In this document: piece by piece, positions 21,763 through 57,934 of the stretch
How positions within the stretch are numbered: the first letter of the stretch is position 1
Layout of the letters: every line of letters starts with the position of its first letter
Source: Minisyncoccia bacterium
GTDB taxonomy: Bacteria > Patescibacteriota > Minisyncoccia > Phycocordibacterales > UBA9973
DNA: 64,000 nt
Reading direction: 5' to 3'
NCBI GenBank assembly: GCA_038249055.1
Contig: JBBRWS010000005.1
Coordinates: 1,822-65,821, forward strand
The notes under the pieces: generated by a model
What the model saw: only the letters and a program-made list of their open reading frames with translations
Told to the model about the DNA's origin: nothing
Database searches by the model: none
Program-made: the position numbers and the translations under genes

Positions 21763-21874
21763 AAATATAATTAACCCATAGGGTGATTCTGTTGAATCAT
21801 AATTAACAATTACTAATTAAAAACAAAATAAGAACTTACTACAAACATTGTATCATAATATTATTAATTCTAAA

Positions 21875-22294
21875 TTATTTACTCCCCTCATCTTTTCCCT
21901 GCACGTCTAAACTCCAAGAAAGATCCTTGATTTTATTAGTTGTTGTCATTGGTACAATAGATACCAACGGCGCAGTCTGTGAATCTTCCTCTTTTTCTTT
22001 GTCACCCGGTTTTACTAGTCTTTGTTTCCATATATATAATTTACTGGACATAAGATAATTAATGCCAGCCTCAAGATAAAAGATAAAAGGTTTTTCATTA
22101 ATTTTATAAAAAACCAGAAGAAAAGATAAAGTTCCTACTATTAGAATCGGAATAAGTCCAAGCCAAAAACCAAGAATTTTATATATAACAAATATTATTC
22201 CTCCCCCACCTAAAAGATATATAAATTGACGAAAAGAAAATGGGCCAAACAGCTTATCTTCGACGTCAATAAATTGTGGAACTTTAAATTGCAT
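21875..22294 (-). CDS. Small two-TM membrane protein, VirB3/PrgI-like candidate
   Basis: 139 aa; hairpin of two TMs at residues about 25-75; directly upstream of the VirB4 N-terminal ORF as in Gram-positive T4SS operons. Confidence 0.35.
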   Translation of the reverse strand: MQFKVPQFIDVEDKLFGPFSFRQFIYLLGGGGIIFVIYKILGFWLGLIPILIVGTLSFLLVFYKINEKPFIFYLEAGINYLMSSKLYIWKQRLVKPGDKEKEEDSQTAPLVSIVPMTTTNKIKDLSWSLDVQGKDEGSK

Positions 22295-22338
22295 AATTAT
22301 TTTTTTATTTCAATAACACTTCCTACTTCCTACTTATC

Positions 22339-23394: not shown

Positions 23395-23408
23395 TTTTTT
23401 ATTTTTGT

Positions 23409-23861
23409 TTATAAACGATTATTTAAAGACGGAAGTTTAATATTTGTATTATTTTCTTCGTTTAAAAAAGCTGAATAATCTCCACCCGAAATAATAAAAT
23501 TTATTGTTTGCTTCCAATTTAATTGTTTGCTTCCTAAATTATTTCTTATATCGTCTTCAATTTTTATTGCTACTGGTTTAAATATTTTTTCAGTAATTTC
23601 ATCCGTTATTTTTTTGAGATCATCCTCTTTTAATTGAATCTCGTTTTGAATATTAAAAGAAAAATTATTTAAATTAACTAAACCCGTTAAAATTAATCCT
23701 GTTTCTACTTGTAATCTTTCTATCTCTTCATCAATAAGTCCAAATTTTATTCCAACCTCTTCAGTTTTTTTAACCCAGTCAACAGAATTAATAGCATCCC
23801 GATTTATTTTTGGAAGCTTTAATATTTCATCTTTAATTTTTTGTTGTAATATTTCTGTCAT
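23409..23861 (-). CDS. Hypothetical protein, paralog of the N-terminal domain of 22339..23394
   Basis: 150 aa; see alignment above. Confidence 0.45.
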   Translation of the reverse strand: MTEILQQKIKDEILKLPKINRDAINSVDWVKKTEEVGIKFGLIDEEIERLQVETGLILTGLVNLNNFSFNIQNEIQLKEDDLKKITDEITEKIFKPVAIKIEDDIRNNLGSKQLNWKQTINFIISGGDYSAFLNEENNTNIKLPSLNNRL

Positions 23862-23870
23862 AAATTTATA

Positions 23871-26621
23871 TTAATGAGTTGGTGCGTGCCCAGCACTTGC
23901 GGGGGCTGTTCCTGCTGGTTTTGCTGCTGCTGCAGGTGTTGGGTGTGCAGGCGCAGGACTTCCCCCTCCTCCATGTGAACTAACACTTTTGGTTACAATA
24001 CCTAATCTTATATTATCTACGGCTTCATCGGTACCCTTTCTTGTACTTCCTGCAGATAAAATATTAGCCCATTTGTTTAAATTACTGCCAAGCATTGTCG
24101 CGTATTCTTTTGCAAGCTGATTACTGTCGTGTTCAATTTTGTGATCAATATCTTTAATTTCTTTGGTAACACCTATTATATTTTTACCGTTTTGTGCACC
24201 TGTATCAGTATAATAATTATTCGTTCCAGCAATTTGACCACCAGATTTAATATTACTTAATTTACTATTTTCTACTCTAATTTCAGTAGAAATTCTAGCC
24301 CTTTCACCTGGGTCTGCTTCATCACTTAGTTGTTGTCTTAGTCTAACTAGGTTAGCGTCAATATCATGAATATCTTTTGAGTATTTATCCTCAATAATTT
24401 TTTTATCAACATTTGCCTTTCTTTTTTTGATTTCACTATCTTTATTAACAATTTTCTTGAGGTCTTCTGCTCTCTTTGTTCTTTTTGCAAGTTTATCTTC
24501 TTCTGCTTTTTTATAGCCACCCTCTTTTGGCTTACCGAGACTCTTTAATCCAGTATCAGAGAGACCTTTACCTGCAATTTTTACTCCACGAAGGTCCATA
24601 CTTCCACTACCCGCAGCTGCTCCACCCTTCAATAACATTTTAGCCCCAAATCCCTTAATTCCACCTTTTGATTCAATCTCAGCTAATTTACTTGAACTGG
24701 CCATTTTACTACCCAATCTACCAAGTGTTGCCCTTCCAGCTATTGCTGCTCCTCCAGTTGCTACTCCAAGAGCAAGTCCTCCTGCAACTGCTCCAACTTT
24801 TGATATAGCAGCACCTACTTCTCCAGACATATCTACAGCGATACTTTTTGCTTTCATTAGAAGAATCATTATAAAAGCGAAAGGAACTACGATAGCAATA
24901 ACAAAAGTCAATCCACCCTTACCTGTTTTCATACTAGCATCAATGATACCAAGTCCTTTATCCATAAATCCCACAATAATATACATAAAAAATGCAAACA
25001 CAGGAGCAACAAAAGCCATTTTTAAAGTATCTGGCCACCATTTTTTCCACCCTATCATTTTTATATCTTGAAGTTGGGGTACTATATAACTAAAAAATGC
25101 GAGAGGTGCCAAAATCATTGCTAGCCATAGTCCGACAACTCTTGCTATAAAAACAAAAGCGGAAGACAAAAAAGCTATAGTTCCAACGATGTTTACGGCC
25201 GTTGCAAGGAAAATAACTATTATAAAAGTACCAGTTGAAATACCCTGTTTTGTTTTTGTTTGGTCTTCACCGGTCATAGTTCCTCTAATTGGTATAGACT
25301 CAACTTCACTGGCTCTCATTATAAGTTCTTGTGGATTTACTTTTGAAACAATAGCTTCAGATAATTTAATTTCTCCAAAATCACCCAATTCACTTTTAGT
25401 TGGAAGAGGGTTACCACTAGCATCTTTTTGGGCAGTACCAGTAACAATTGTTTTTTGATTATAAAATACTCGAGTTAAAATATTTGAAGCATCTATTATT
25501 ACTTGGGTTGCAAACAAACTAAAATTTATCAAAAGCCCGATAATAACAACATTTATTATCATTTCTTTTGTTTTGACATTGTGTAAATTTAAAATAGTTC
25601 CAAATGCAATATAGAGCAAAACGAAAATAAAGAACATATTACAAAAATCTTTTACTATTCCCCATCCTTCTACAACAAAAGATGAACGATAAGAAGTGTC
25701 ACTAATAGAATACATCAATGTAAAGTCTAATGCTTTTCCAGAAAGACCAAAAACAAATGAAGATGTTTTAAAAAATAAGTAATATAGAGCTTGAGCAATA
25801 CAACCTGAAAACCAAGAACTTGGGCTAGTAACATCACAAGTTGGAAGATCTCCAGCATTGCTTCCTTCTGATATTTTAACTTCACCACTACCCAGAGCAC
25901 CTATATTTTGTTGTATTTTGTTTGCAGTTGTTAAAGGATTTAATGTTGCTGCAGGAAAGTAACTTTTTTCTTCTGTAACTCCAGAAATTGATTCTCCATT
26001 ACCCTCCGCACTTCCGCACTGCGACGCCGTACAAGCAAGATAGTATAATGTTGTTTTATAAGAAGTATCTGGTTCCAATTGTGTAAAGTCGCCATTTATA
26101 TTTTTTCTAATAGAAATATCCAACTCTATACTAGTAGGCATTGTAGATTCCCCTCTCATTTCTGTATAATTTTTACCAGGTGGAGTTAAAATAAATGAAG
26201 TAGCATCTAACCACCCAACTTTATTTGTTTTTAAATTTTCAAATTTTAAAATAAAAGTATTAGGAGTTTCAAAATTTTTACAAGCACCCCCTAAAGTAAG
26301 AACACACGTCGCAATATTACCTGAAGTTGCTACATATTTCCAAGCATCGCTTGCGTTGGAATTTTTAGGTAATCCCGTATCTAATATAAGATGTAGGTCT
26401 GCAGTTGCCAGTGTTTCATCTACGTAAGTTGTATTATTGCGACTTAAAATACTAGCTGAAAAGTTTTGAGTGAATGCTTCTTTTGAGCCATCTCTTTCTA
26501 CTGCTTCTGCTTTTGAACTTTTTATTTCTATACTTTTTCCATCTAACCCAACACTAATAGGCGCGAAGAGATTCGCGAAGATGATAAAAGATATTAAAGT
26601 ATATGATAAAACTTTTTTCAT
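23871..26621 (-). CDS. Large polytopic membrane protein with signal peptide and Pro/Ala-rich C-terminal tail; VirB6/TrbL-like candidate
   Basis: 916 aa; N-terminal signal; about 300-aa periplasmic region; at least 6 TMs between residues about 290-620; coiled-coil; C-terminus GGGGSPAPAHPTPAAAAKPAGTAPASAGHAPTH encoded by a locally GC-rich segment. Confidence 0.35.
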   Translation of the reverse strand: MKKVLSYTLISFIIFANLFAPISVGLDGKSIEIKSSKAEAVERDGSKEAFTQNFSASILSRNNTTYVDETLATADLHLILDTGLPKNSNASDAWKYVATSGNIATCVLTLGGACKNFETPNTFILKFENLKTNKVGWLDATSFILTPPGKNYTEMRGESTMPTSIELDISIRKNINGDFTQLEPDTSYKTTLYYLACTASQCGSAEGNGESISGVTEEKSYFPAATLNPLTTANKIQQNIGALGSGEVKISEGSNAGDLPTCDVTSPSSWFSGCIAQALYYLFFKTSSFVFGLSGKALDFTLMYSISDTSYRSSFVVEGWGIVKDFCNMFFIFVLLYIAFGTILNLHNVKTKEMIINVVIIGLLINFSLFATQVIIDASNILTRVFYNQKTIVTGTAQKDASGNPLPTKSELGDFGEIKLSEAIVSKVNPQELIMRASEVESIPIRGTMTGEDQTKTKQGISTGTFIIVIFLATAVNIVGTIAFLSSAFVFIARVVGLWLAMILAPLAFFSYIVPQLQDIKMIGWKKWWPDTLKMAFVAPVFAFFMYIIVGFMDKGLGIIDASMKTGKGGLTFVIAIVVPFAFIMILLMKAKSIAVDMSGEVGAAISKVGAVAGGLALGVATGGAAIAGRATLGRLGSKMASSSKLAEIESKGGIKGFGAKMLLKGGAAAGSGSMDLRGVKIAGKGLSDTGLKSLGKPKEGGYKKAEEDKLAKRTKRAEDLKKIVNKDSEIKKRKANVDKKIIEDKYSKDIHDIDANLVRLRQQLSDEADPGERARISTEIRVENSKLSNIKSGGQIAGTNNYYTDTGAQNGKNIIGVTKEIKDIDHKIEHDSNQLAKEYATMLGSNLNKWANILSAGSTRKGTDEAVDNIRLGIVTKSVSSHGGGGSPAPAHPTPAAAAKPAGTAPASAGHAPTH

Positions 26622-26654
26622 TTATTATCTAACAAAACCATTATAGCATTTTAA

Positions 26655-26690
26655 TTTAATATTAAATTAAAATGCTAATTTTTTAAACAA
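26655..26690. repeat. Perfect AT-only palindrome TAGCATTTTAATTTAAT/ATTAAATTAAAATGCTA between two co-oriented cluster genes
   Basis: 16-bp perfect inverted repeat; candidate operator or weak attenuator. Confidence 0.4.
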
Positions 26691-26800
26691 AAACTTAACT
26701 AAAAACTTCAGATTCATTTCATCTCCACTTCCTAATTTAATTATTAATTAGTAGTTTTGATTTAATAAAATCTCTCCTAGATTAATTATTAATTAAACCA

Positions 26801-29800
26801 CTACCAAATATTTAAAATTCTTTCTGTGCTATTCATATCTATGCTATCTACCCATTTACAACCCCTATCTATATTTTGATAATAATTACTAGGAAGTCCT
26901 CCCTCTGATCCTGTTTTTAATCCAGTTCCCCATGCCCAACAGTTTGAATATTCATTATTACCTATATTAAAGTTATTAAAGGTATCACAATCAATTCCGT
27001 CTGTAGTTTTACCTGTAAAATATCCAGATGCAACCCTGCATGATACATTTCTACCACTAGCATTATATATAGGTTCTAATAAACCAACTTCAGTGTAGCC
27101 AAATTGATCAGTGTCGGTGTCTGCTATTTTGTAAGGGTATGAACCATTTGTTCCTTTTGTATACCATGGATTTCCATGTCTAATTCCTGTAAAACCATTA
27201 GCATAAGGATTCGTTCCAAGATTAAATACAAAATTACTGTTTGCTTCTCTTGCAAATTCTGCTCCAGAATTAGCTTCACACAAATCTTTGTTACGTGAGC
27301 AAAAATCATTAAAACCACTATTATCATTTAGTTCCAAGTAGCATTTTTTTGTTAGGTTATCAATTTGACTAGCAAAATTTGTATTCTGTTCAATCTCATT
27401 ATATATTGTTGAAATATCTTCTACTGTTTTAAGGGATGATGATATTAGATAAAATTTGCGAAGCAATATGTCCAGTTGTGCTTTTTCTGCATCGTTAAAT
27501 GTTAAAGGGTTTTGTTCTATTAATAAACATTTATTGGCTCCACCACTTTCACATTTGTCCCCGTTTACAACTTTAGGTGGCTTACAGTCAGATTTATTTA
27601 TACATGCTTTTGTCTCAGTATCAGTTATCATCGGAGAAACACAAGGTCCAGGAACTTCACACTTGTCCCCAATTACAATTTTAGGTGACTTACAATCAGA
27701 TTTATTTATACATGCTTTTGTCTCAGTATCAGTTATCATCGGAGAAACACAAGGTCCAGGAACTTCACACTTGTCCCCAATTACAATTTTAGGTGACTTA
27801 CAGTCAGATTTATTTATACACAGTTTAGTTTCAGTGTCTGTGATTTTTGGAGAAAGACAAGGTACTGGTAATGAACTTGTTACTGTAAATGTTGTCCAGG
27901 CTCCACAGTTATTGTTTTCATTTACTTCTGTAATTAATCCATCGTCTACTGCTGATTTTTTATCTGCACAGGCACGTATATAATATGTACCCGCAGAAGT
28001 AAATTTATATGAAACTTTTGCAGTGTTACTAGTTTTTGGTGACATTATTGGAATAGTAACATCAAGCGACACCAGAGAAGAAGAGTTAGATGAGCTACTT
28101 GTACCAGGATTACTTTGAGTTATTGCAAAGAAAGATGAAAATGTTTTTAAAGTAGAACCACCCCCAATATTTGTTATTGTTGAGGAAAGCGTTGTTTGTG
28201 TATTTATAAGAGAGCTTGCAGGAGTAACATTTCCAGCTGTTAAATCAGGTTCTGTTCCTGAAGGAGAAGTTGATTCTGAGTTGTGTTCAGCTACATATTC
28301 TTTATTTAAATCCCCATTAACGTGACACTCAGGATCCGCATTGTCTATTAGTAAGTCGTTGTCGTTATTATTTATTTTATCGTTACATTCATATTTTGTT
28401 TCACCAAATCCACTTACAAAAATATTTACAAAACCAGCACCTGAGCCGAGATCTCCTTTACAGGTTACAGAGTATGAAGTATTTTCTGTAAGTGGTCCTG
28501 TTTCAAAAGAGCCAGCAGTAGCAGTTCCTCTTCCAGTTCCTGCATCACAAGATGTACTGTTTGTTGAGGTCCAATTAATAGTTGAAGAAGCTCCAAGTGC
28601 AACTGAACTCGGACTGGCAGTAACTTTGACTGTTGGAAAAGTATTACTTCCACCGGTAACAAAAACATAAACACTATTGTTGCTTGAACCGTTTAATCCC
28701 GTACATGTTACTGAATATGAATTACTGTCTTTGAGTGGTCCTGTTTCAAAAGAACCAGAAGTTCCAGACCCCCTTCCAGTTCCTGCGTCACAAGACGTAC
28801 TGTTTGTGGAAGTCCAACTTATAGTTGAAGATGCACCAGGAGCAACTGAACTTGGGCTAGCTGTAACACGGACTGTTGGAAATTTATTTCCAAAACCAAA
28901 ATCGTCACAAGTAGGAGGATTTATTGCTCCGTTTATACATTTATTAGAATCAATAGGACCAGTAGTACAAACAGGAGGATTTGTTGCTCCATTTATACAT
29001 TTATTAGAATCAATAGGACCAGTAGTACAAACAGGAGGATTTGTTGTTCCATTTATACACTTGTTGTCGGTACCCACGTTACAAATCTCAGGATTTATTG
29101 CTCCATTTAGACATTTATTATCAGAAGTAATAGTACAAAGCGGAGGATTAATTGTTCCATTTATACACTTATTGTCAGAAGTAATAGTACAAAGCTGAGG
29201 ATTTGTTGCCCCATTGAGACACTTGTTGTCAGAGCCAATAGTACAAAGCTGAGGATTTGTTGCCCCATTGAGACACTTGTTGTCAGAGCCAATAGTACAA
29301 AGCTGAGGATTTGTTGCCCCATTAAGACATTTATTATCGGAGCCCACAGTACAAATTGGAGGATTAATTGTTCCATTTATACATTTATTATCAGAAGTAA
29401 TAGTACAAAGTGGAGGATTAATTGTTCCATTCACACATTTATTTTCAGAACCTATAGTACAAAGCGGAGGATTAATAGCTCCATTAATACATTCACTTTC
29501 TAAAATACTATCGCAAAGAGGAGGGTTGTTTGCTTTGTTTAGACACGTATTGTCAGAGTTAATAGTACAAAGCGGAGGATTAATTGTTCCATTTATACAT
29601 TTATTATCAGACCCTACAGTACAAAGCGGAGGATTAATTGTTCCATTTAAACATGAACCATTTACTAAAATAGTACAAAGTGGAGGATTAATTGTTTCGT
29701 TTAAACATAAATTACGTGAAACTGTAGTACAATTTGGGGGGTTGTTTGCCCCATTTAAACATAAATTATTTGAGTCTATAGTACAAAGTGGAGAATTAAC

Positions 29801-30775
29801 CGCTCCGTTTACGCATGCTTTTTTAGAGGGAGTCACGTTAAATAAATTATTTAAAAATCTAGAGAAAGAATCAAAAAAAGTATTTGTAGCTCCACTGTTT
29901 CTTATTGTAATTCTACCACTACCCTCATTGGATATATTTTCATTTGCGATACCGAATACCGAACTTCCTGCGGTTGTTTTTATTATTGTAGGATTGAAAA
30001 GAGATACGCCATCACCTTTTTTAAGATCTTCACCTGCTTGAGCTATTATTTTTAAAGAATTACCAAAAAGATTTTCGTCTCCTGGAGAACCCCAAGCTCT
30101 TGTGTTGGGATTAAACAACCACTCTCCTCCACTAGGATTCAATGTCCAAACTTTTGTATTTGAATCATAAACCCAACCACCTGTTGGTGGTACAGGGACG
30201 GTCTCAGGTGAAACCCAGGCTCTAGCTGTTGAATCATAAACCCAACCTCCGCCAGTTGTACTTAGTGTCCATTTTCTTGTATCGGAACTGTATATCCATC
30301 CACCTACTGGCTGTGATGGAATACCTTGCGGTGCAATCCATTTTCCTGAATTAGAATTAAATACCCACTCTCCTTTGTTTGGATTAAGTGTCCATTCGCC
30401 TTTTCCTGGGTTAAATTTCCAACCCCCAATATTTAAGGTATTGTTATTTATTAAAATTTCCCCTTTATCATTATATTTTATGTCACTTAATGCAAAACCA
30501 AACACATCCGTGCCCCCGGTTGCTTTTATTACAATTGGATTTACTAGAGATACCTCATCCCCCTTTTTTATATCACCACCTGCTTTAGTTGTTATAGATA
30601 CACCTTTTGAGTTACTTGATGGTAACAAAGGAGAAAATATTTTAGCAATAGTGTTTGAAGTTTTTACACCAAAAATATCTCGATTTTTGATTAATAAATA
30701 TCCCAAAATCAAAAGAAATAGAATAACAATCAATGTTATTATTAGCGCTTTACTTTTTTTGGGTTTATTTTCCAT
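26801..30775 (-). CDS. Giant repeat-rich cell-surface protein (1324 aa) with Trp-repeat region, about 12 Cys-containing 19-20-aa repeats (CxNGxxNPPxCTxxSDNK), two ~75-aa Ig-like repeats and three ~40-aa CxSPxITDTETKxCINKSDCK repeats
   Basis: N-terminal TM/signal; internal periodicity visible at protein level and as perfect DNA repeats (e.g. 57-60-nt units at about 28.96-29.32 kb; ~120-nt units at about 27.6-27.85 kb). Confidence 0.55.
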   Translation of the reverse strand: MENKPKKSKALIITLIVILFLLILGYLLIKNRDIFGVKTSNTIAKIFSPLLPSSNSKGVSITTKAGGDIKKGDEVSLVNPIVIKATGGTDVFGFALSDIKYNDKGEILINNNTLNIGGWKFNPGKGEWTLNPNKGEWVFNSNSGKWIAPQGIPSQPVGGWIYSSDTRKWTLSTTGGGWVYDSTARAWVSPETVPVPPTGGWVYDSNTKVWTLNPSGGEWLFNPNTRAWGSPGDENLFGNSLKIIAQAGEDLKKGDGVSLFNPTIIKTTAGSSVFGIANENISNEGSGRITIRNSGATNTFFDSFSRFLNNLFNVTPSKKACVNGAVNSPLCTIDSNNLCLNGANNPPNCTTVSRNLCLNETINPPLCTILVNGSCLNGTINPPLCTVGSDNKCINGTINPPLCTINSDNTCLNKANNPPLCDSILESECINGAINPPLCTIGSENKCVNGTINPPLCTITSDNKCINGTINPPICTVGSDNKCLNGATNPQLCTIGSDNKCLNGATNPQLCTIGSDNKCLNGATNPQLCTITSDNKCINGTINPPLCTITSDNKCLNGAINPEICNVGTDNKCINGTTNPPVCTTGPIDSNKCINGATNPPVCTTGPIDSNKCINGAINPPTCDDFGFGNKFPTVRVTASPSSVAPGASSTISWTSTNSTSCDAGTGRGSGTSGSFETGPLKDSNSYSVTCTGLNGSSNNSVYVFVTGGSNTFPTVKVTASPSSVALGASSTINWTSTNSTSCDAGTGRGTATAGSFETGPLTENTSYSVTCKGDLGSGAGFVNIFVSGFGETKYECNDKINNNDNDLLIDNADPECHVNGDLNKEYVAEHNSESTSPSGTEPDLTAGNVTPASSLINTQTTLSSTITNIGGGSTLKTFSSFFAITQSNPGTSSSSNSSSLVSLDVTIPIMSPKTSNTAKVSYKFTSAGTYYIRACADKKSAVDDGLITEVNENNNCGAWTTFTVTSSLPVPCLSPKITDTETKLCINKSDCKSPKIVIGDKCEVPGPCVSPMITDTETKACINKSDCKSPKIVIGDKCEVPGPCVSPMITDTETKACINKSDCKPPKVVNGDKCESGGANKCLLIEQNPLTFNDAEKAQLDILLRKFYLISSSLKTVEDISTIYNEIEQNTNFASQIDNLTKKCYLELNDNSGFNDFCSRNKDLCEANSGAEFAREANSNFVFNLGTNPYANGFTGIRHGNPWYTKGTNGSYPYKIADTDTDQFGYTEVGLLEPIYNASGRNVSCRVASGYFTGKTTDGIDCDTFNNFNIGNNEYSNCWAWGTGLKTGSEGGLPSNYYQNIDRGCKWVDSIDMNSTERILNIW
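27560..29720. repeat. Intragenic perfect and near-perfect tandem DNA repeats inside the giant surface-protein gene
   Basis: Identical 57-60-nt units in tandem (x2 and x3) and ~120-nt units; all in-frame coding repeats. Confidence 0.7.
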
Positions 30776-30801
30776 AATTTATTTAATATATTAACTATTT
30801 A

Positions 30802-33800
30802 TTATCTTCGATATCCACTACCACCACTAACAGATGTTCTTGTTCCACTAGTACCTGGATTTACATAACCAGGACAAGTTGGGTCGTTCTTGTCTGCTAA
30901 TCCATTTAAGTCATCATCTATTCCGTTAAAACATCTTTCAAAATCAACAGATATATTTGAAATAGAGCTTGCATCATAAACTTGAATATTTTCTTCAGCA
31001 AAACATTCCTTATATTCTTTTAAGTAGTCTTCCTTAGATAGAATTTTACCAGTAGTTACTAATTCATTTATACATGCGTAATATTCTCTATCACAAGCGA
31101 CAGTACCACGTTCATTTTCCATACACTCAGTTTTAGCATCTTCACATGTTGATGTTGCGGTTGAATTAATTTTATTTATTTGTAGTAATAAATTAGCATC
31201 GCGTCTGTTTTGAGCGGCCACAATTATTTTACTAACTTCAGTTCTAATAGATTCAAGTTTAGAAATATTTATTTTTGCCTGAGCGACAGAATCACTGTAT
31301 TCTTGTTTTGATTTATAAATCTCATTATCATAAAAGATAATGTCTTTTGTTAAATCATAACCACCTGCAGCCATTGGCATATATGATGGATTTTTATAAG
31401 TATTTGCGGGTTCAGATTCTACTTCAACGTATTCCTTAGTTACATTATTGAAATATAGTCTATTGATCATTTTATCAAATGAGTCATAAAACCCCTGGAA
31501 CAAGAAATTGTTTACATAATCTGTAAAGCTGTCTTTATATCTTGTCCTCAATTGTATTCTGTCGTCTTCATCTGAACTTAATTTAGAATTATTGTCGTAA
31601 GTATAACTTCCCCCACTAGCATCCCAAAATCTAGTAAAAGTCCATATCAAATTCCATTGAGATTTCCACCCAGTTAAAAGTGTTGCCCATACTTTTTGGT
31701 TATCTTTATAAATATTTTGCAAATTATCATATGTCCATTGACCAGGACCATCTATTTTTACTCCAAATCTTTTATTTGAGCTATCGATTGCACCCACAAA
31801 TATTGAACCAACCCAATTTTGATATGCACTTTGTGCCTCAGCTGAATTTGATTTGTAGCTTGGATTTGGGCCAGGAAGACAGTAATCTAACTCTCCTAGT
31901 TTTGGCATTACTGTGGGTAAAACTTTTAGTATTTCAGTTGCAGCAACTACATAATCTTGTTGTATTTGAATGACACCACGGTTTTTTATAGGACTAGGTT
32001 GTCCTTTTTTCCAGTTTTGCCACTCATATCCATTCCAGAAAGCTCTATCGCCAACTTGCCATCCGTTATATCCATTATCAACAATCTTTGTGTTTCCTGG
32101 AGTTGTTACTTCCCAATATATATTTGTAGATATTTGGTTTTTGTTGTCATCATATACTGGAGGCAGATAACCACTCATTATTTGATCAAATTTGTCTGTT
32201 CTATTTATACTAGAATTTGCATTCCAAGTTCCTGCTTTATATGTATTTTCGTGTATATAAGTATTTCCTAAATCTCTGGTTAAATTAAACCCATCATAAG
32301 CGCCGTTGTTATCATATGGAGTGTTTCCATCTAAACTAGTAAAACTATTTATGTTGTCAGTCCAATTTGATGTATTTTCTACTTTATCTGAAAGCCCAGA
32401 AAGACCACCACCTTCTAGTTTTGAAATTAAAATAGAAAATAAAGCATTTAGCGAGTCATTTATGGTTTTTGCAAGTTCGAGCTGGCGTTCTGGGGAGTTT
32501 AGATAATTGGTTGTCTTATCTCGGATAATGCTTCCTGGTGTTGTTATTTTCCAATCAACACACTTGTCGAAATTTGGAGTTGTTGTACTTTTTGTTGGTT
32601 TAAATACCGATGTGGTCATAGTTTTTAAACCAGCAGCGGCAGATTTGGCAGAGATGGATGGAGTTTCTTTAAGAGGGTCACCTTCTTTGTCGTACCACTG
32701 CCACAATATGCACTCCTTTTGACTTAAAAATCCATTATTTTCAGCGAGTTGAGATTTTTGTTCCGTAACCTGTTGGACTTGGGTGTTTGTTAAATATTGA
32801 TTAGCAAGCATACTAAAACCCAAAGGATTGTTTTGGTCTCTTTGTGTTAATGCCATATACCCATCCCAACCACCCACAGAAAAATCATTTTGAAAATTAT
32901 TGTTTGCTTGTTGAGCTCTTTGAAGAGCTGTTTGAGTATTGTCTACTTGGTTTAATTGATCATTTGAATAAAAAGATTTTGGGTCTGAAATAAAAGCTCC
33001 TAAATCAGATTGAAGTCCCCCAAGAAAACCAGAGGAACTTGCCCCCACTCCTAAATTGCTTCGACTACTTGTTATTTTTGTTTCAGCAAATTCTCTAGCA
33101 TATGGATTTCCAAAAGCTTTATCAAGAAGGATGTCTGTTCCTGTTTCGATTACATTTCTTTCAATACTATTTGTAAAATTACGCATATTTTGAACGAAGA
33201 AGGGGTTACCTCCATATCCAGAATTCACCCAATTCATTGCACTACGAGTCATAGCGGTAAGTTGATTCTTTGCAAGAGTAATAGCAATTCCATCTAAACA
33301 TTGCTCCTTTGTGGATGTTTCAGCTGCTTGCTCATTTGCCTTATTTAATTCTTGGATAGTTTCTTTGCTTGTTGCATCAACGGCAGCTTTACACGCGTCT
33401 TCTCCTCCAATTTTTAATTCTTCAAGCCCTGTTTTTAATGCAGTAACTAAATCATTAACAAAAGGAATTGAACCTACTCCTGCTTCAGCACCTGTCTTTA
33501 TTCCAGCACAGGCTGTTCTAAGTTGTTCCCTTGTTTTTTTTATTTTATCTGCAGCAGCAAGTGCTGTTTTTTTAGGAGATTGTATAAATTTAATCATCCA
33601 AGTTGAAACTTTGTTTACAATACCTGTACACCCAACAACGTTTGTAAGTAAGTTTGAATTTACAACATCACTAATTTTAAATTTGTATGGATTGCTGCCT
33701 CCTTGGTTTGGGTTAGAATAAAGGTCGGACATATTAGTGGCTGCATATGTAGGTAAAGCAAATTGAAAAATAGATACTATAAATACAAACATAATCAATC

Positions 33801-33834
33801 CTGAAATTATTTTTGTGATAGTTTGTTTATTCAT
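30802..33834 (-). CDS. Large secreted protein (1010 aa), hypothetical; Cys-rich C-terminal module
   Basis: Cleavable-looking signal (..FALPTYAATN); no recognisable enzymatic motif. Confidence 0.45.
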   Translation of the reverse strand: MNKQTITKIISGLIMFVFIVSIFQFALPTYAATNMSDLYSNPNQGGSNPYKFKISDVVNSNLLTNVVGCTGIVNKVSTWMIKFIQSPKKTALAAADKIKKTREQLRTACAGIKTGAEAGVGSIPFVNDLVTALKTGLEELKIGGEDACKAAVDATSKETIQELNKANEQAAETSTKEQCLDGIAITLAKNQLTAMTRSAMNWVNSGYGGNPFFVQNMRNFTNSIERNVIETGTDILLDKAFGNPYAREFAETKITSSRSNLGVGASSSGFLGGLQSDLGAFISDPKSFYSNDQLNQVDNTQTALQRAQQANNNFQNDFSVGGWDGYMALTQRDQNNPLGFSMLANQYLTNTQVQQVTEQKSQLAENNGFLSQKECILWQWYDKEGDPLKETPSISAKSAAAGLKTMTTSVFKPTKSTTTPNFDKCVDWKITTPGSIIRDKTTNYLNSPERQLELAKTINDSLNALFSILISKLEGGGLSGLSDKVENTSNWTDNINSFTSLDGNTPYDNNGAYDGFNLTRDLGNTYIHENTYKAGTWNANSSINRTDKFDQIMSGYLPPVYDDNKNQISTNIYWEVTTPGNTKIVDNGYNGWQVGDRAFWNGYEWQNWKKGQPSPIKNRGVIQIQQDYVVAATEILKVLPTVMPKLGELDYCLPGPNPSYKSNSAEAQSAYQNWVGSIFVGAIDSSNKRFGVKIDGPGQWTYDNLQNIYKDNQKVWATLLTGWKSQWNLIWTFTRFWDASGGSYTYDNNSKLSSDEDDRIQLRTRYKDSFTDYVNNFLFQGFYDSFDKMINRLYFNNVTKEYVEVESEPANTYKNPSYMPMAAGGYDLTKDIIFYDNEIYKSKQEYSDSVAQAKINISKLESIRTEVSKIIVAAQNRRDANLLLQINKINSTATSTCEDAKTECMENERGTVACDREYYACINELVTTGKILSKEDYLKEYKECFAEENIQVYDASSISNISVDFERCFNGIDDDLNGLADKNDPTCPGYVNPGTSGTRTSVSGGSGYRR

Positions 33835-33869
33835 AAATAATTATTTATAGTATATCATTTTTATGTCTT

Positions 33870-34763
33870 TTATTGCAAAATTAAAGAAATTTTTTCTAGG
33901 TCAGAAGCAAGGGCGTCGCTATAATTCTTATAATTTAAAATTGCTTTCATTCCAAGAATTGGATCAGATAACACTTTTGATAAATCTAATATTGATTGAC
34001 CAGTTTTTTCATAATTATTTGCAGCACTTAAATGAGCAGGAATTAAAGATCTAGGAACAGATAATCCTATCATATTGTCACCAAAAGATTGATATGCACG
34101 AGCTACTGTAATTGCTGCATATAGTGCCTGTTCGTCTTGATTACTTATTCCCTGGATAATAAATGTTAGTTCACTGCCTATATCAGAATTAGAATATTTG
34201 CTTACAAGACCACCCAATTCATCATGATATGTGTTAAAAGATTCTTCTGAATCACTTACTACTGTTAGCATTTTTACTTCATACATATCAGGAATAGGAG
34301 TAGGTGAAACATTTTGTCCCAAAGCTTCTGAAACCGAGTTCATTGATTCCTCGTTTAATTCTCCTGTTTGTTGTAGTGAAATAATTGTTGCAAAAAATTG
34401 CCTAGAAAGTAAATCATTGTCGGTTATTGATTCTGAATCATCCATGTTTGTTATTATCCCATTTTGTTCAAGAGTTTTTTTCTTTGCTAGTATAAACTCT
34501 TTATTTTCGGGGCCACTTTTAGTAGGATCTAATCCCCATAAGTATTCCTCATAATCCGGAATACCATTTTTATTACTATCCTTTTGTGAAATACTTTCAG
34601 GAGTTCCAATAGTTAGTTTTATCGGTTCATTGTTTGTGGTATTTTTATTATTAAAAAAAGAAATTATTCCTCTAACTGTGAAAAATAAGATTATAATTAC
34701 AGCAATAATTAGGATTAATGTTATGAATTTTTTACTTGGAAGATAATTTTTATAATTATTCAT
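33870..34763 (-). CDS. Membrane-anchored hypothetical protein (first gene of the minus-strand cluster)
   Basis: 297 aa; single N-terminal TM. Confidence 0.4.
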   Translation of the reverse strand: MNNYKNYLPSKKFITLILIIAVIIILFFTVRGIISFFNNKNTTNNEPIKLTIGTPESISQKDSNKNGIPDYEEYLWGLDPTKSGPENKEFILAKKKTLEQNGIITNMDDSESITDNDLLSRQFFATIISLQQTGELNEESMNSVSEALGQNVSPTPIPDMYEVKMLTVVSDSEESFNTYHDELGGLVSKYSNSDIGSELTFIIQGISNQDEQALYAAITVARAYQSFGDNMIGLSVPRSLIPAHLSAANNYEKTGQSILDLSKVLSDPILGMKAILNYKNYSDALASDLEKISLILQ

Positions 34764-53972: not shown

Positions 53973-55520
53973 TTAAACACCGTGCTTTTTATGTAACTTT
54001 TCAACTTCTTCTTCTTCCATTTTGTCTTTTTTCTCTTTACCCCTCTCCCCTAGAACTTTTAGTTCAGCATCTCCAAGCATATTTAGTGATTTTACTAATT
54101 CAGATAAGTGAATTTCTGTATTTTTGGATGGGTCATCTAGAACTTCTTCAAGAAGTGCACTTAAAATCCAGCCCATACGAGGAGATGGTTTCACATGTAA
54201 CGTTTTAATCATATATTCCCCATCTATAGCTAATTGGCCTACAGATATTGGATCATGTAGAACCTCTTCAATCATAGCGTGATATTTACGTAAGCGATAT
54301 GGGGCCTCTTTCTTTTTCATACCAACCCTATCACATTCTCGTACATTCATAAGTTCCCAAATATGTTCCTTCCCTACATTTTGAACAACACGACGGACTG
54401 CGGAAAGAGTGATTGTTTCTGTATCTGAGAAAAACATATGACCACGAACCAATTTCAACACCAAGTCGGTTGTTTTTTGGGGAAATTTTAATCTATCCAT
54501 TATTTGTTTCGTCATTCTGGCTCCAACAACTTCATGTCCGTAAAATGTATATTTCCCTTTTCCACCAGCTTTTGTTCCGTCCCAGCGTCTTGTTTTAGGT
54601 TTACCGACATCGTGAAACAGCGCCGCTAATCGAATTTCTAGAGACCAACTTTTTTTTACCGCATGGCCAAGAGCATGAAGTAAATGTTCCCATACGTCAT
54701 AAATATGCTCACCTTTTTGCTCACATCCAATTCCCTCTTCCAGTTCAGGAATTATATATTTAAGAAGATTAAGTTTAGAAAGAAGACTAAGGCCAAGAAC
54801 TGAGTCATCTGACATAATGATTTTTATAAATTCATCTCTAATGCGTTCAAAAGATATATTCTTGATTAATTCTGAATTATCAACAATTGCTCGTGTTATA
54901 TCACTAGATAATATAAATCCCAGTTGAGCTGAAAAACGGATAGCGCGAATCATTCGAAGGGCATCCTCATTAAATCTATCTTCGGGATTTCCGACTGCTC
55001 TTATAATTTTGTCCTTTATGTCCTTTTGTCCATTAAAATAATCAACAATTTGTCCTTTTCCTGGATTATATGCTAAAGCGTTTATTGTAAAATCACGTCT
55101 TTTAAGATCATCTTCTAAATTATTACTAAATTTTACATCATCTGGATGTCTAAAATCACTATATTTTGCTTCAATTCTATATGGAGTTACTTCAATTATA
55201 TAATACTTTGTTTCAGGTGAAACAATATTTTTACTCATTTCTGATGTTTCACATGTAACATTATTTAATTCCTTTGGTATACACACACCAACTGTGCCAA
55301 ATTTGTTCTCGTATATAGTCTTTTCAAATAATGAAATAATTTCGTCTGGTTTTGCGTTTGTAGTAATATCCCAATCGTTTGGTTCCCTGTTCATTATAAG
55401 ATCACGGACACAACCCCCGACTAAAAAAACTTGAAATCCGGATTTTTCAAGTGTTTCTGTTACACGTGTAACATATTTTGGGATTAAATTATTATTTATA
55501 GTCGTTAGTTTTTTTTCCAT
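53973..55520 (-). CDS. cca: CCA-adding tRNA nucleotidyltransferase with HD domain
   Basis: 515 aa; Pol-beta-type head FLVGGCVRDLIM..DWD; RNA-binding body; C-terminal HD (HDVGK). Confidence 0.82.
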   Translation of the reverse strand: MEKKLTTINNNLIPKYVTRVTETLEKSGFQVFLVGGCVRDLIMNREPNDWDITTNAKPDEIISLFEKTIYENKFGTVGVCIPKELNNVTCETSEMSKNIVSPETKYYIIEVTPYRIEAKYSDFRHPDDVKFSNNLEDDLKRRDFTINALAYNPGKGQIVDYFNGQKDIKDKIIRAVGNPEDRFNEDALRMIRAIRFSAQLGFILSSDITRAIVDNSELIKNISFERIRDEFIKIIMSDDSVLGLSLLSKLNLLKYIIPELEEGIGCEQKGEHIYDVWEHLLHALGHAVKKSWSLEIRLAALFHDVGKPKTRRWDGTKAGGKGKYTFYGHEVVGARMTKQIMDRLKFPQKTTDLVLKLVRGHMFFSDTETITLSAVRRVVQNVGKEHIWELMNVRECDRVGMKKKEAPYRLRKYHAMIEEVLHDPISVGQLAIDGEYMIKTLHVKPSPRMGWILSALLEEVLDDPSKNTEIHLSELVKSLNMLGDAELKVLGERGKEKKDKMEEEEVEKLHKKHGV

Positions 55521-55832
55521 AAGAAAATTAGACTACGATATTTTTGTGCGATAGATATCTAGGAGAATCGCGAGATACTCTAGCTGGTACTTTTCTATCT
55601 TCGATAAGGAAAAGTCTTCCGATTCTCCTATGAGAGCAAAACTATTTGCTCTCTATCCCGCACAAAAAGCTTAGCTTATTTTTGTGCGGGATACCCAGTA
55701 GGTCATTTTGCTAAATGACCCGTGAGGTCATTCTACTGAATGAGGATCATCAATTCCGATTCTCCTATTAAATTTAACCTGCAATATCGTTCTACTTGTT
55801 AACTTATACATAATAACCGTATATTTTTTTTG

Positions 55833-55903
55833 TGCGGGATAGGAGAATCGGACTCCTGTCTCATCCTTGGCAAGGACGTGTTCTACCACTAAACCAATCC
55901 CGC
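55833..55903 (-). tRNA. tRNA-Gly (anticodon GCC)
   Basis: Cloverleaf folded by hand: acceptor GCGGGAT/ATCCCGC, D-stem GTTT/GAAC, anticodon stem CGTCC/GGATG, loop TTGCCAA, T-arm AGGAG-TCCGATT-CTCCT; close to E. coli tRNA-Gly(GCC); no encoded CCA. Confidence 0.85.
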
Positions 55904-56034
55904 AACCATAAAATAACTTATAAAGTATAATCATTTTTAGTAAAAAATGCAATTATGAATAAATGCTTATTTTAAAAGCTGATTTACTAAAAAATAAAAT
56001 TAGTATACAATAATATTAATCAAATATTGTATAT

Positions 56035-56106
56035 GCGCCCGTAGCTCAACGGATAGAGTACTTGTCTTCGGAACAAGTGATGTGGGTTCGATTCCTGCCG
56101 GGCGCA
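56035..56106 (+). tRNA. tRNA-Arg (anticodon UCG)
   Basis: Acceptor GCGCCCG/CGGGCGC, D-arm GCTC-AACGGAT-AGAG(T), anticodon stem CTTGT/ACAAG, loop CTTCGGA (U33, UCG, G37), T-loop TTCGATT; no encoded CCA. Confidence 0.8.
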
Positions 56107-56310
56107 CAAAAAGCCCGAGCTCCGTCCCTGCGGACGGAGCGTGCAGGAATCGAAAGATTTTTCGATGTCGAGCTTGTGAGACCGAAAAATACCAGACTAA
56201 GTAATAGTCGATTCCTGCCGGGCTAAATCAAAATCTTAAACTTATTTTAAAATGTGAAATGTACACTGAGAATGGTAAATAATTCTACTCGCGGTCCTGC
56301 CGGGCGCACC
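56107..56310 (+). repeat. tRNA-Arg 3'-end-derived copies (TCGATTCCTGCCGGGC at 56208-56223; GGTCCTGCCGGGCGCACC at 56293-56310) plus structured module X1 (CTGCGGACGGAGCGT + expanded T-arm-like stem GCAGGAATCGAAAGATTTTTCG ... TCGATTCCTGC)
   Basis: Direct repeats of the last 16-18 nt of the adjacent tRNA; 11-bp stem that mimics and extends the tRNA-Arg T-stem. Confidence 0.55.
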
Positions 56311-56719
56311 CTATATTTCCTGAATATACAAATTAAATACGAGACCTTACTTTTGACCTTTATGCGTCCTTTATCCCCACAAAAAAGCCTTAAAAATTAA
56401 TAATTTTGTGGATAACTATGTGTGTATTGTTTATAAAAGACAATTATGTCATAGTAGTTTTGAAAGACATTATTTTAAAATTCAATAATATATGTTGTTA
56501 TATAAAGATATTTTTAGATTTGAGTCCTTAATCGAAGATTTTTGTCCATTAAAGACAAAATCGTTTCACGTGAAACGATTTAATTTGTTACACATGTAAC
56601 AAAGCTGTTAAATATATGAATTTACAAAAATTTTTTAATAAACATAGATTATTAGTAATATATTTTACACAATTCTATTATTTTAAATATAAAAATGAAT
56701 TGAGTAAATAATTTGGCTG

Positions 56720-57115
56720 ATGAAGAATTTTATATCTGGTACACAAAAAATAGGAGAATTAGGTGAAGGAGTTGCCTGTATGTTTCTTGTGAAACATGGT
56801 TTTGATATTTTGGAAAGAAATTATACTAAAAAATGGGGAGAAATTGATATTATTGCTCAAAAAGGTGATAAAAGATACTTTATTGAAGTTAAATCTAAAA
56901 GTGTACTAAGTTTAGATTTTGTATCAAATAATGAAGGAAGACCCGAAGAAAATATGCATCCATGGAAGATGAAGAGACTAAGAAGGGTAGTTGAAACGTA
57001 TTTAATCAGTCAAAGACTTGGGTATGTTGATTGGCAGTTTGATCTATTTGTAGTGTATTTGGATATAGATGGTAGAAAAGCGAGAGTTAAGGTGATGGAG
57101 AATATAATATTGTAA
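56720..57115 (+). CDS. yraN: YraN-family (UPF0102) PD-(D/E)xK-fold endonuclease-like protein
   Basis: 131 aa; GELGEGVACMFL...GEIDIIA..YFIEVKS pattern typical of YraN. Confidence 0.65.
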   Translation: MKNFISGTQKIGELGEGVACMFLVKHGFDILERNYTKKWGEIDIIAQKGDKRYFIEVKSKSVLSLDFVSNNEGRPEENMHPWKMKRLRRVVETYLISQRLGYVDWQFDLFVVYLDIDGRKARVKVMENIIL

Positions 57116-57164
57116 GATATTATTTGAGTTTTTATCAATTTTAGTGTATATTATTATGGTATTT

Positions 57165-57235
57165 GCGGGATTAGTTTATCGGTAAAATAACAGTTTTCCA
57201 AACTGTGGTGAAGGGTTCGACTCCCTTATCCCGCA
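57165..57235 (+). tRNA. tRNA-Gly (anticodon UCC)
   Basis: Acceptor GCGGGAT/ATCCCGC, D-stem GTTT/AAAT, anticodon stem ACAGT/ACTGT, loop TTTCCAA, T-arm AAGGG-TTCGACT-CCCTT. Confidence 0.8.
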
Positions 57236-57242
57236 CAATTAT

Positions 57243-57267
57243 AAAAACCAGCTTCGGCTGGTTTTTA
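57243..57267. terminator. Intrinsic terminator (CCAGC-TTCG-GCTGG) flanked by A5/T5
   Basis: GC stem with stable TTCG tetraloop immediately after tRNA-Gly(UCC). Confidence 0.7.
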
Positions 57268-57268
57268 T

Positions 57269-57492
57269 GTGCGGGATAGGAAGCAGACTACTCTGCTTCC
57301 GTAAGGGAGTCAAAGGGCTTTTCATTATAAATTTAGACCCTGTCTAAATTTATTGAAAAGGCATACTGTCCTCGTAGAGGAAGGCTCCCTTTGTTTTTAT
57401 CTGCGGACGGAGCGTAAGGGAGTCGAAAGATTTTTCTTTATTTTGATATTAATCAAAATAGAAAAATACCCGAATAGGTTGTATTCGACTCC
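57269..57492 (+). repeat. tRNA-derived fragments and module X2 (inverted copy of the tRNA-Gly(GCC) 3' end GTGCGGGATAGGA; CTGCGGACGGAGCGT + expanded T-arm-like stem AAGGGAGTCGAAAGATTTTTC ... TTCGACTCCCT mimicking the tRNA-Gly(UCC) T-arm)
   Basis: Shares the 15-nt CTGCGGACGGAGCGT block and the GAATCGAAAGATTTTTCG-type hairpin with X1. Confidence 0.5.
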
Positions 57493-57754
57493 CTAATTTA
57501 ATTTATCTGGATGCCATATTTTATTAAACCTGGACTATGAGTAGAACCGGGATATATTCCTGTATTCATGGCCGGGACCGGCATTAGCCTTATCGAAAAT
57601 TACAGGAATATTTGAATAGGGTCCGGGATCGTGAGTACACTTATCGACGATTACATCGTCAGGTACTTTTCGCTCTGGCTAATGCCAGAGAACGAAAAAT
57701 CTTTCGATTCCCGGGCACGAGTGAAGCAGTTCACTCGTTCACCCCGACAATAAG

Positions 57755-57788
57755 TAAAAACCACAATAATAAATTATTGTGGTTTTTA
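57755..57788. terminator. Bidirectional terminator (CCACAATAA-TAAA-TTATTGTGG) flanked by A5/T5
   Basis: 9-bp stem; downstream of tRNA-Pro on the minus strand. Confidence 0.6.
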
Positions 57789-57795
57789 CTTATTG

Positions 57796-57866
57796 TCGGG
57801 GTGCCGGGAATCGAACCCGGCCCTTATGTTCCCAAAACATAGATACTACCGATATACTACACCCCG
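57796..57866 (-). tRNA. tRNA-Pro (anticodon UGG)
   Basis: Acceptor CGGGGTG/CACCCCG, D-stem GTAT/GTAT (two G-U pairs), anticodon stem TATGT/ACATA, loop TTTGGGA (UGG, G37), T-arm CCGGG-TTCGATT-CCCGG. Confidence 0.75.
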
Positions 57867-57934
57867 ATGTAATTTATCTATCTTAGCATATTTTGTACTA
57901 AAAACAATTTTTAATATTTTGACAAATTTGTTAA

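Follow-up and report, generated by a model that had tools for sequence, protein, structure and literature searches.

Miniature inverted-repeat transposable elements (MITEs), Correia elements, Rickettsia palindromic elements and repetitive extragenic palindromes with their interspersed mosaic elements (REP/BIME) are small, structured, intergenic and multicopy, contain no open reading frame (ORF), vary between relatives, promote rearrangements and can act as terminators. Integrative elements of tRNA and transfer-messenger RNA (tmRNA) genes and their integrase-less derivatives, cis-mobilizable elements (CIMEs), leave the tRNA intact, also use tmRNA genes, accrete in tandem and are bounded by direct repeats from the T-loop to the tRNA 3' end, the classical sublocation of integrase crossover. 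Internal target-complementary segments with flanking hairpins are found in the IS110 bridge RNA, in IS200/IS605 and the omega RNA of TnpB, and in the exon- and intron-binding sites (EBS/IBS) of group II introns; an acceptor-like and T-stem-like helix with an arm between recurs in the tRNA-like domain of tmRNA, bacterial YrlA, viral tRNA-like structures (TLS), mascRNA and the t-elements of plant mitochondria; and 18-20 nt complementary to a tRNA 3' end, or an 18-nt unit from the T-loop, are familiar from the primer-binding sites of retroviruses and long terminal repeat (LTR) elements and from tRF-3. Here we describe a family of tRNA-linked modules identified in 64,000 nt of a Minisyncoccia bacterium (GCA_038249055.1, JBBRWS010000005.1, positions 1,822-65,821; this whole stretch is the window, and coordinates below refer to it), an element that shares features with several of these systems but meets the defining features of none. 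No description of the module emerged from Rfam 15 or from full-text literature searches, and the family appears to be undescribed and specific to Patescibacteria.

The module is 110-170 nt long, lies downstream of a tRNA gene in the same orientation and contains a protein gene in no copy. Read from the tRNA, an optional trailer with a bidirectional terminator hairpin (present in the window at Pro and Gly-UCC) is followed by the reverse complement of tRNA positions 66-74, including the trailer if there is one, and a single A; by hairpin A (8-9 bp, loop about CUGC) and G or GU; by the reverse complement of positions T54-65; by a core, AAGAYTTTTC-variable hairpin-GAAAARTACC; by a small hairpin with a GTA loop (hairpin C); and by a sense copy of the tRNA that starts at about position 57 and runs to 74 or beyond. 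Hairpin A, whose sequence differs in every window copy, is placed exactly at the T-stem/acceptor junction, tRNA position 65/66. The core pattern AAGAYTTTTC-N13-24-GAAAARTACC matches the window four times against 0.00 expected, once behind each of its tRNA genes and on the strand of that tRNA, and a covariance model built from 52 module copies (R1) scores the four copies at 71-104 bits, with nothing else in the 64 kb above noise. The window modules fold far better than shuffled sequence (z -4.2 to -7.0), and in the predicted fold hairpin A is accompanied by an acceptor-like stem and by a T-arm-like stem that encloses a three-way junction. The tRNA-like stems form in the Arg and Pro copies of the window; many copies lack the acceptor-like stem or have it in a degenerate or elongated form (more than 7 bp), and their T-loop is paired. 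Three helices (hairpin A, core stem and hairpin C) were scored for covariation against column shuffles and slid alignments: standard pairs make up 91.5% of the alignment, compared with 70.5% after column shuffling and 35-47% after sliding, double-change cells number 262 against 82 expected, and compensatory changes occur in 16 of 22 pairs. Conserved unpaired nucleotides comprise the A and GU beside hairpin A, the CUGC loop, GAAAG, ACC and the GUA loop. A kissing interaction between the loops of hairpins A (CUGC) and C was considered and rejected, the latter being only a 3-nt GUA and no consistent covariation being visible by eye. G-U pairs in the module are equally rare on both strands (5.6% vs 5.9%), and neither G-U counts nor folding energies, computed in both orientations for modules and long palindromes, revealed a significant strand preference.

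The module is represented by more than 90 copies from many genomes. One genome per species (GTDB) was scanned with the core pattern, giving at least 123 matches in at least 119 stretches; among the 123 matches listed, 48 stand behind a same-strand tRNA, at a distance of 37-265 nt and with the same architecture, and every one of these loci with a named phylum belongs to Patescibacteria (Saccharibacteria, Paceibacterota, Nomurabacteria and others), the remainder being labelled only "bacterium". Nearly all of the remaining listed matches belong to other phyla, lack a neighbouring tRNA and reflect chance; a few from the Candidate Phyla Radiation (CPR), with no detectable tRNA, are orphan copies. 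R1 finds 76 matches in 54 CPR loci, where 66 of the 99 genes for tRNA or tmRNA are followed by a module at no more than 330 nt, a proportion biased upward by the selection of loci for having a module. Modules follow tRNAs for Asp, Ser, Arg, Thr, Leu, Gly, Pro, Ile, Cys, His, Phe, Ala, Gln and Val and likewise a tRNA with the anticodon UUA, at least 15 tRNA types in total; one more stands behind a tmRNA gene (Rfam 125 bits), and its arms match the tmRNA 3' end. The module is restricted to tRNA-like 3' ends in CPR genomes. Viral contigs of IMG/VR contain 33 pattern matches, none of which passes R1 and 17 of which were checked and lack a tRNA; a role of the module as a phage attP was rejected on these grounds, all the viral-contig matches being due to chance. 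ARAGORN calls tRNAs with the anticodon UUA, which reads the UAA stop codon, at L118 3834-3907 and L205 504-573 (L numbers denote comparison loci); the former has a normal module, the latter occupies the place of the relatives' tRNA-Gly(UCC), and a suppressor tRNA or a miscall may lie behind either. Another element downstream of tRNAs, more divergent and containing GAGYCGGGGTCGCGAGATTTTTC..GAAAAATACTTGTGACC, occurs at L003 (~6290-6390), L022 (~2310-2420), L006 (~3030-3330), L161 and L109, and also in the Arg-to-cca spacers of L157 and L158. Because R1 misses this element as well as a variant core, AGGGCTTTTC..GAAAAGGCATAC, occupancy is underestimated.

Without exception, the arms correspond to the tRNA beside them. 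Exact agreement typically spans 12 nt in the antisense T-arm (T54-65) and 5-23 nt in the antisense acceptor, where it continues through the trailer into the terminator arm; in the sense copy it extends over up to 35 nt. Over the seven tRNA-specific positions 59-65, the antisense arms of 50 copies are identical to their own tRNA at 6.38 of 7 positions, against 3.71 +/- 0.15 in shuffled pairings; the corresponding figures for the sense copy are 10.2 of 14 and 7.35 +/- 0.17. In 32 modules the distal sense copy has diverged, and the antisense arm is closer to the tRNA in 31 of these and to the distal copy in none; the maintained relation is therefore that between the antisense arm and the functional tRNA, while the distal copy decays. 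Modules come in two forms, one with no terminator, a short or degenerate antisense acceptor and an intact distal copy of positions 57-74, the other with a near-perfect palindrome of 19-30 bp (acceptor strand, trailer, terminator, complementary trailer, antisense acceptor) and a short or decayed distal copy. Trailers vary in sequence between relatives and keep their self-complementarity. At the tip of the palindrome, an intrinsic terminator (a G+C-rich hairpin with a T-run and a preceding A-run) is present at Pro, at Gly-UCC and in the majority of palindromic copies, as just one component of the module. Promoter-like sites were found on the opposite strand downstream of some modules, but on this A+T-rich background the promoter scan is uninformative.

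The positions of the window features are collected in the table below.

Features of the tRNA cluster and its modules, in window coordinates (hairpin C and similar boundaries marked ~ are approximate; X2 is the sense copy)
Feature	Position	Strand	Evidence
CCA-adding enzyme ORF, downstream of tRNA-Gly(GCC) on the same strand	53973-55520	-	Pfam
Complete Gly-GCC module	55541-55668	-	pattern; R1 89.5 bits; fold z = -6.4; syntenic module in L044
Gly-GCC module, degenerate sense copy X2	55541-55570
Gly-GCC module, hairpin C	~55571-55585
Gly-GCC module, core	55586-55618
Gly-GCC module, antisense T-arm	55619-55630
Gly-GCC module, hairpin A	55632-55653
Gly-GCC module, antisense acceptor	55654-55668
Sense Gly-GCC acceptor 3' strand and trailer (ATCCCGCACAAAAA)	55679-55692	-	inverted repeats, fold
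Remnant antisense Gly-GCC T-arm copy (AATAGGAGAATCGGAA on the - strand)	55754-55769	-	sequence
tRNA-Gly(GCC)	55832-55903	-	ARAGORN; Rfam 64.8 bits; T-loop TCCGATT
tRNA-Arg(UCG)	56035-56107	+	ARAGORN, Rfam
tRNA-Arg module, without terminator	56108-56223	+	pattern; R1 94.6 bits; -54 kcal/mol, z = -7.0
Arg module, antisense acceptor GCCCG	56113-56117
Arg module, hairpin A	56119-56140
Arg module, antisense T-arm	56142-56153
Arg module, core	56154-56193
Arg module, small hairpin	~56194-56209
Arg module, perfect 16-nt sense copy X2	56208-56223
Third, isolated Arg 3'-end copy GGTCCTGCCGGGCGCACC, T-loop deleted	56292-56309	+	direct repeat
tRNA-Gly(UCC)	57165-57236	+	ARAGORN, Rfam
Gly-UCC unit 1	57237-57382	+	fold z = -5.8; no R1 match
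Gly-UCC unit 1, trailer and bidirectional terminator	57237-57268
Gly-UCC unit 1, antisense acceptor	57269-57278
Gly-UCC unit 1, hairpin A	57279-57300
Gly-UCC unit 1, antisense T-arm	57302-57313
Gly-UCC unit 1, variant core AGGGCTTTTC..GAAAAGGCATAC	57314-57366
Gly-UCC unit 1, hairpin C	57367-57382
Gly-UCC unit 2	57383-57495	+	pattern; R1 71.3 bits; comparison with L087, L154
Gly-UCC unit 2, degenerate hairpin A	57383-57413
Gly-UCC unit 2, antisense T-arm	57415-57426
Gly-UCC unit 2, core	57427-57470
Gly-UCC unit 2, hairpin C	57471-57487
Gly-UCC unit 2, sense copy X2	57484-57495
Degenerate sense Pro T-arm copies (GATCCCGGAC, GGTCCCGGCC) and duplicated 33-nt segment	57572-57631	-	direct repeat
tRNA-Pro module	57620-57794	-	inverted repeat; pattern; R1 103.9 bits; fold
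Pro module, extension GATAAGTGTACTCAC	57631-57645
Pro module, hairpin C	57646-57661
Pro module, core	57662-57703
Pro module, antisense T-arm	57704-57715
Pro module, hairpin A	57717-57738
tRNA-Pro(UGG)	57795-57866	-	ARAGORN, Rfam

The initial annotation had noted four tRNAs beside a cca gene, surrounded by partial copies of their 3' halves in both orientations, and had offered two explanations, nested attachment-site (attL/attR) scars or a family of tRNA-mimicking modules. The four tRNA genes are real, none encodes CCA, and the neighbouring ORF does encode the CCA-adding enzyme; in Rfam 15 (gathering threshold, and a second pass at E<=10) only these tRNAs pass, nothing credible appears over the modules at E<=10, and the related loci yield tRNA and tmRNA only. 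No known self-cleaving ribozyme matches the module, as judged by a comparison of motifs together with the Rfam result. All the fragments noted there are present: TCGATTCCTGCCGGGC at 56208-56223 repeats the tRNA-Arg 3' end (56088-56103) at 16 of 16 positions and TCCTGCCGGGCGCAC at 56295-56309 copies it at 15 of 15; the Gly-GCC T-arm and acceptor copy with its inserted hairpin GAGAGCAAA..TTGCTCTC lies at ~55619-55668, the Pro fragment with ACGAGTGAA-GCAG-TTCACTCGT at 57704-57749, and the inverted repeat ATCCCGCACAAAAA/TTTTTGTGCGGGAT at 55653-55668 / 55679-55693. Two needed amendment, in that a second Gly-GCC T-arm copy exists at 55754-55769 rather than 55770-55790, and GTGCGGGATAGGA at 57269-57281, assigned to Gly-GCC, belongs to the adjoining tRNA-Gly(UCC), whose acceptor sequence is the same as that of Gly-GCC. 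The opposite-strand fragments with hairpin insertions do not represent separate inverted scars; they are the antisense arm of each module, which itself follows the orientation of its tRNA; of the two explanations, the module family came closer to the truth, the unit being a conserved, covarying sequence of ~100 nt.

Beyond the four core matches, the cluster contains tandem units at Gly-UCC and extra partial copies at Gly-GCC and Arg. The Gly-GCC module ends 20 nt from the cca start codon; the sense acceptor copy at 55679-55692 is the left arm of a palindrome, with 55654-55668 as partner, and the T-arm copy at 55754-55769 is left over from an older or partial module. Two tandem 25-nt repeats at 55693-55742 (ACCCAGTAGGTCATTTTGCTAAATG / ACCCGTGAGGTCATTCTACTGAATG), each able to form a small hairpin, sit downstream of tRNA-Gly(GCC), with the antisense T-arm remnant on one side and the sense acceptor copy on the other, and fall outside the module consensus. 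At Arg, the third 3'-end copy is likely the footprint of an older unit, and TACTCGCGG just before it resembles the GYGTACTCRCGG extension of other modules (L062, L022 and L049 were compared). Gly-UCC unit 2 is orthologous to a single module in L087 and L154, and the variant core of unit 1 also occurs in L153, L166 and L004; the window region equals the single L154 module plus an extra 113-nt unit between direct antisense-T-arm repeats, which is the arrangement that recombination with a second unit would produce. The Pro module has a perfect 31-bp palindrome (57740-57770 / 57773-57803) with the terminator and the antisense acceptor (57740-57749, + strand), and the degenerate T-arm copies and the 33-nt duplication lie at its distal end. 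The T-loop of tRNA-Gly(GCC) carries C at position 55 in the window, L155, L156, L161, L174, L196 and L213 and reads TTCGATT in other relatives; U (pseudouridine 55) is nearly universal at this position, and the arms of the window module carry the C.

Comparison with relatives shows what separates an occupied site from an empty one. Scanning metagenomes with the CCA-adding enzyme as query recovered 80 syntenic loci (61-86% protein identity), and locus content varies among them, as the initial annotation had anticipated. The tRNA cluster is present in almost all, with only 23 R1 matches; where a co-oriented tRNA stands upstream of cca, the spacer is 2-60 nt in most loci, a clean empty site, and a module is present in few. 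Occupied L180 reads GATTCTCTCTGGCCGCAC, module, GATTCTCTCTGGCCGCAC and native flank where empty L185 and L204 have a single copy; at Arg-UCG, occupied L154 likewise differs from empty L166 by a module and a duplication of GATTC...GCAC, positions 57-74, and its distal copy retains the native encoded CCA and the conserved downstream palindrome found in L166. The event therefore inserted ~100 nt and duplicated 18 bp, positions 57-74, as a direct repeat. The right junction falls between T-loop C56 and G57, after GTTC, and hairpins stand at both ends. Because the sense copies continue into native flank and not into CCA, their source is DNA or a primary transcript rather than mature tRNA, and a retro-origin from mature tRNA was rejected.

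Turnover is evident at several scales. L087, at 78-82% DNA identity to the window, has the Gly-UCC module, 96.5% identical over 86 nt, and no modules at Pro and Gly-GCC. Units in tandem are seen in L102, L091 and L022 as well as at the window Gly-UCC; remnants comprise half of hairpin A (L155) or the antisense acceptor alone (L159, L165); and in orphan modules the arms record a tRNA that is no longer upstream. At L164 339-387, a 22-nt insertion (aatatttttCCTACTCCGCAC), not present in L175 (295-321), duplicates the last 12 nt of tRNA-Gly(GCC) with no module, and looks like an excision or deletion footprint. Core subtypes are independent of tRNA identity and are exchanged between tRNAs: the CCTTATCGAAGATGG type is found at Arg-UCG (L154), Gly-GCC (window, L044), Pro (L035) and Gln (L094), and the window Pro core is ~90% identical to the Arg-GCG core of L062.

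The gene order around the modules is also fluid. The divergent tRNA-Gly(GCC) and tRNA-Arg(UCG) pair upstream of cca (window 55832-56107) is found in both orientations in L153-L232, as Gly- Arg+ cca+ or Arg- Gly+ cca+, with repeated flips along the identity series; the order and orientation of the Gly-UCC/Pro pair vary too, and the breakpoints relative to L087 lie at tRNA 3' ends, where modules sit. A perfect palindrome, AAATCGTTTCACGTGAAACGATTT, at window 56558-56581 (L087 7530-7552) has counterparts of the form gtttcaYatgaaac upstream of cca in L154, L157, L158, L159, L165 and L166, whichever tRNA is adjacent, and looks like an operator or a bidirectional terminator.

We lean, with modest confidence, toward reading the modules as a family of miniature non-autonomous structured elements that target tRNA and tmRNA 3' ends and whose arms mimic the target. 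In such an element, the split antisense arm would pair with the continuous 3' strand of T-stem and acceptor, so that the target is recognized by base pairing; hairpin A would take the place at which the D and anticodon domains branch off in a real tRNA, and the complex would copy the acceptor/T-arm helix as a tRNA-shaped three-way junction. After insertion, the displaced distal sense copy would be free to decay, and selection or palindrome-templated correction could preserve the match of the antisense arm to the functional tRNA. The element would be moved by a trans-acting enzyme encoded elsewhere, and plausible side effects include a very long terminator hairpin for the tRNA gene and dispersed repeats that promote local inversions.

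Several observations weigh against this account. No integrase, transposase, reverse transcriptase (RT) or HUH enzyme adjoins any copy or is encoded in the 64-kb window, and no autonomous version of the element was found. Copies within one genome have diverged, with no sign of the recent burst seen in typical MITEs, and the arrangements tRNA-Cys-module-tRNA-Leu (L036, L023, L084) and tRNA-Gly(GCC)-module-cca (window, L044, L015) look as if inherited vertically, both of them across long distances. A host function would also be compatible with the Gly-UCC module, which is more conserved between the window and L087 than the DNA on either side, and precise loss between the 18-bp repeats could by itself produce the patchiness. 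G-U pairs, equally rare on both strands, favour neither strand and neither DNA nor RNA as the active molecule. The window itself is ordinary chromosome close to dnaA/dnaN. Pfam, run on its 40 proteins, gave no transposase, RT, HUH or Cas1; TnpA and TnpB are likewise not found in the window, and its sole recombinase is a Xer-like tyrosine recombinase ~5 kb from the modules. For YraN, an exact-protein look-up gave no entry. Elsewhere in the window, dnaN and dnaA around 9831-12554 place the stretch near the replication origin, and a run of large minus-strand ORFs (14879-34763, up to 1324 aa, mostly with no Pfam match), with a TraG/VirB4-like ATPase at 18992-20824, is typical CPR surface or type-IV-like machinery.

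A host function could account for several of these points. The module could be a "shadow" RNA of each tRNA, transcribed with or beside it and folding into a tRNA-like three-way junction in which hairpin A replaces the D and anticodon arms and the T-stem extends into the core; such an RNA would be a substrate or ligand of tRNA enzymes, for example RNase P, RNase Z or the CCA-adding enzyme, possibly serving in pre-tRNA 3' processing, quality control or termination or as a decoy or regulator, and would have spread by duplication and gene conversion, not transposition. The exact placement of hairpin A at 65/66, the conserved junction nucleotides (A; GU; GAAAG; ACC; GUA), the strong covariation and the upkeep of complementarity between the antisense arm and the tRNA all suit an RNA of this kind, as do terminator-less copies between co-oriented tRNAs (Cys-module-Leu), modules in the cca leader of several genomes, the long-range conservation of the Cys-module-Leu and Gly-GCC-module-cca positions and, in the comparison of the window with L087, a module conserved far above its flanks. 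However, the module is dispensable, which speaks against an essential role: most orthologous tRNAs in the 80 relatives have none, and clean empty sites occur; the terminator, where present, lies between tRNA and module, so that read-through would be required for co-transcription; the acceptor-like stem is frequently absent or exceeds 7 bp; decay of the distal sense copy brings no compensatory change in its partner; and the helices are almost purely Watson-Crick on both strands, unlike those of long-lived functional RNAs. A host RNA is less likely than an insertion element, yet a serious rival to it. Among described tRNA-like structures, which the module resembles in that it could likewise be cut out by tRNA-processing enzymes, it stands apart in having a paired T-loop and a conserved three-way junction instead, stems that are exact Watson-Crick copies of the neighbouring tRNA, tRNA-specific versions and a dispensable character.

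A further possibility, which we think unlikely, gives the split antisense arm a more active part, as a programmable guide (RNA or single-stranded DNA) that pairs with the T-stem/acceptor 3' strand of the tRNA gene or pre-tRNA and forms a tRNA-shaped junction, with hairpin A in place of the D and anticodon domains, used by a tRNA-recognising host enzyme or another enzyme. This may amount to guide-directed insertion of a 100-nt element whose guide is re-templated from each new target, or to processing or modification of the tRNA, in which case the module would be a guide RNA for tRNA in bacteria. Compared with known guide-bearing elements, the module has a complementarity of ~20 nt that is split 9+12 by a hairpin and no adjoining recombinase or TnpB; no Rfam model of the IS110 or IS605 RNAs matches it, and its 18-bp duplication is unlike both. 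With respect to IS110, the module arms are complementary to the distal copy, and no DEDD/Tnp recombinase gene is present in the window; hairpins at both ends and a junction after GTTC recall IS200/IS605, but the 18-bp duplication and the lack of TnpA/TnpB in the window do not. The complementarity also differs from that of a primer-binding site, in that it enters the genomic trailer and includes the complement of CCA only where CCA is encoded; no RT was found. TIGR-Tas systems occur in CPR bacteria and phages and consist of 36-nt units with box C/D-like motifs, arrayed beside a Tas (Nop-domain) gene (PMC12045711). They are alike in their CPR hosts, in short dual guide-like segments around a hairpin and in matches to both strands; we rejected this identity, the module being 110-170 nt long and tied to tRNA, with no box C/D motifs identified, no array and no Tas gene.

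It is quite improbable that the palindrome evolved in place, the terminator hairpin being extended outward by template switching and the core cassette supplied by gene conversion. Near-perfect hairpins of 19-30 bp centred on the terminator loop and reaching the acceptor strand, trailers that differ between relatives but remain self-complementary, and the antisense acceptor arm beside a terminator with no module in L159 and L165 are what this process would leave; yet it explains neither the 18-bp duplication with its ~100-nt insert at terminator-less sites, nor hairpin A and a conserved core behind at least 15 tRNA types, nor the tandem units of L102, which repeat the terminator too, and half a hairpin A in L155 shows that some cases with the antisense arm only are deletion remnants. 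Decayed attL/attR scars of integrase-bearing islands or prophages, although suggested by direct repeats from T-loop to 3' end, the use of tmRNA and nested copies, are largely refuted and very improbable, for what lies between the repeats is, in more than 90 copies, a conserved and covarying module of 100 nt and not island debris, integrase attachment sites do not yield antisense copies, no integrase adjoins and the module is not found in IMG/VR; what stands of that proposal from the initial annotation is the 57-74 duplication flanking an insert, the nesting, the tandem units and the footprints, and what falls is an integrase island as the insert.

As a site-specific miniature insertion element, the module has a fair chance of using a new targeting principle. 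From integrative elements of tRNA genes, the module differs in size (~100 nt, not kilobases), in having no integrase, in its structured core and hairpin-split antisense copy and in not being found in viral contigs. MITE-like repeats are distinguished by terminal inverted repeats, whereas the module has none that are fixed or shared, its arms differing per copy as the adjacent tRNA 3' end does; it is confined to tRNA-like 3' ends, is accompanied by an 18-bp duplication, and its copies within a genome are diverged.

Patescibacteria have tiny genomes, yet they carry dozens of copies of a structured element of 110-170 nt tied to tRNA and tmRNA genes. The combination of a 3'-end duplication with a hairpin-split antisense copy is a new way for a mobile element to occupy an essential gene harmlessly, and, if the antisense arm is a guide, the modules would be among the smallest target-programmed elements known and a lead to their enzyme. 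In CPR genomes, the modules account for a good deal of the unusual intergenic DNA and of the local inversions near tRNA genes, and can confound the annotation of tRNAs, terminators and attachment sites; by the same token, they provide an easily searched, phylum-specific marker.

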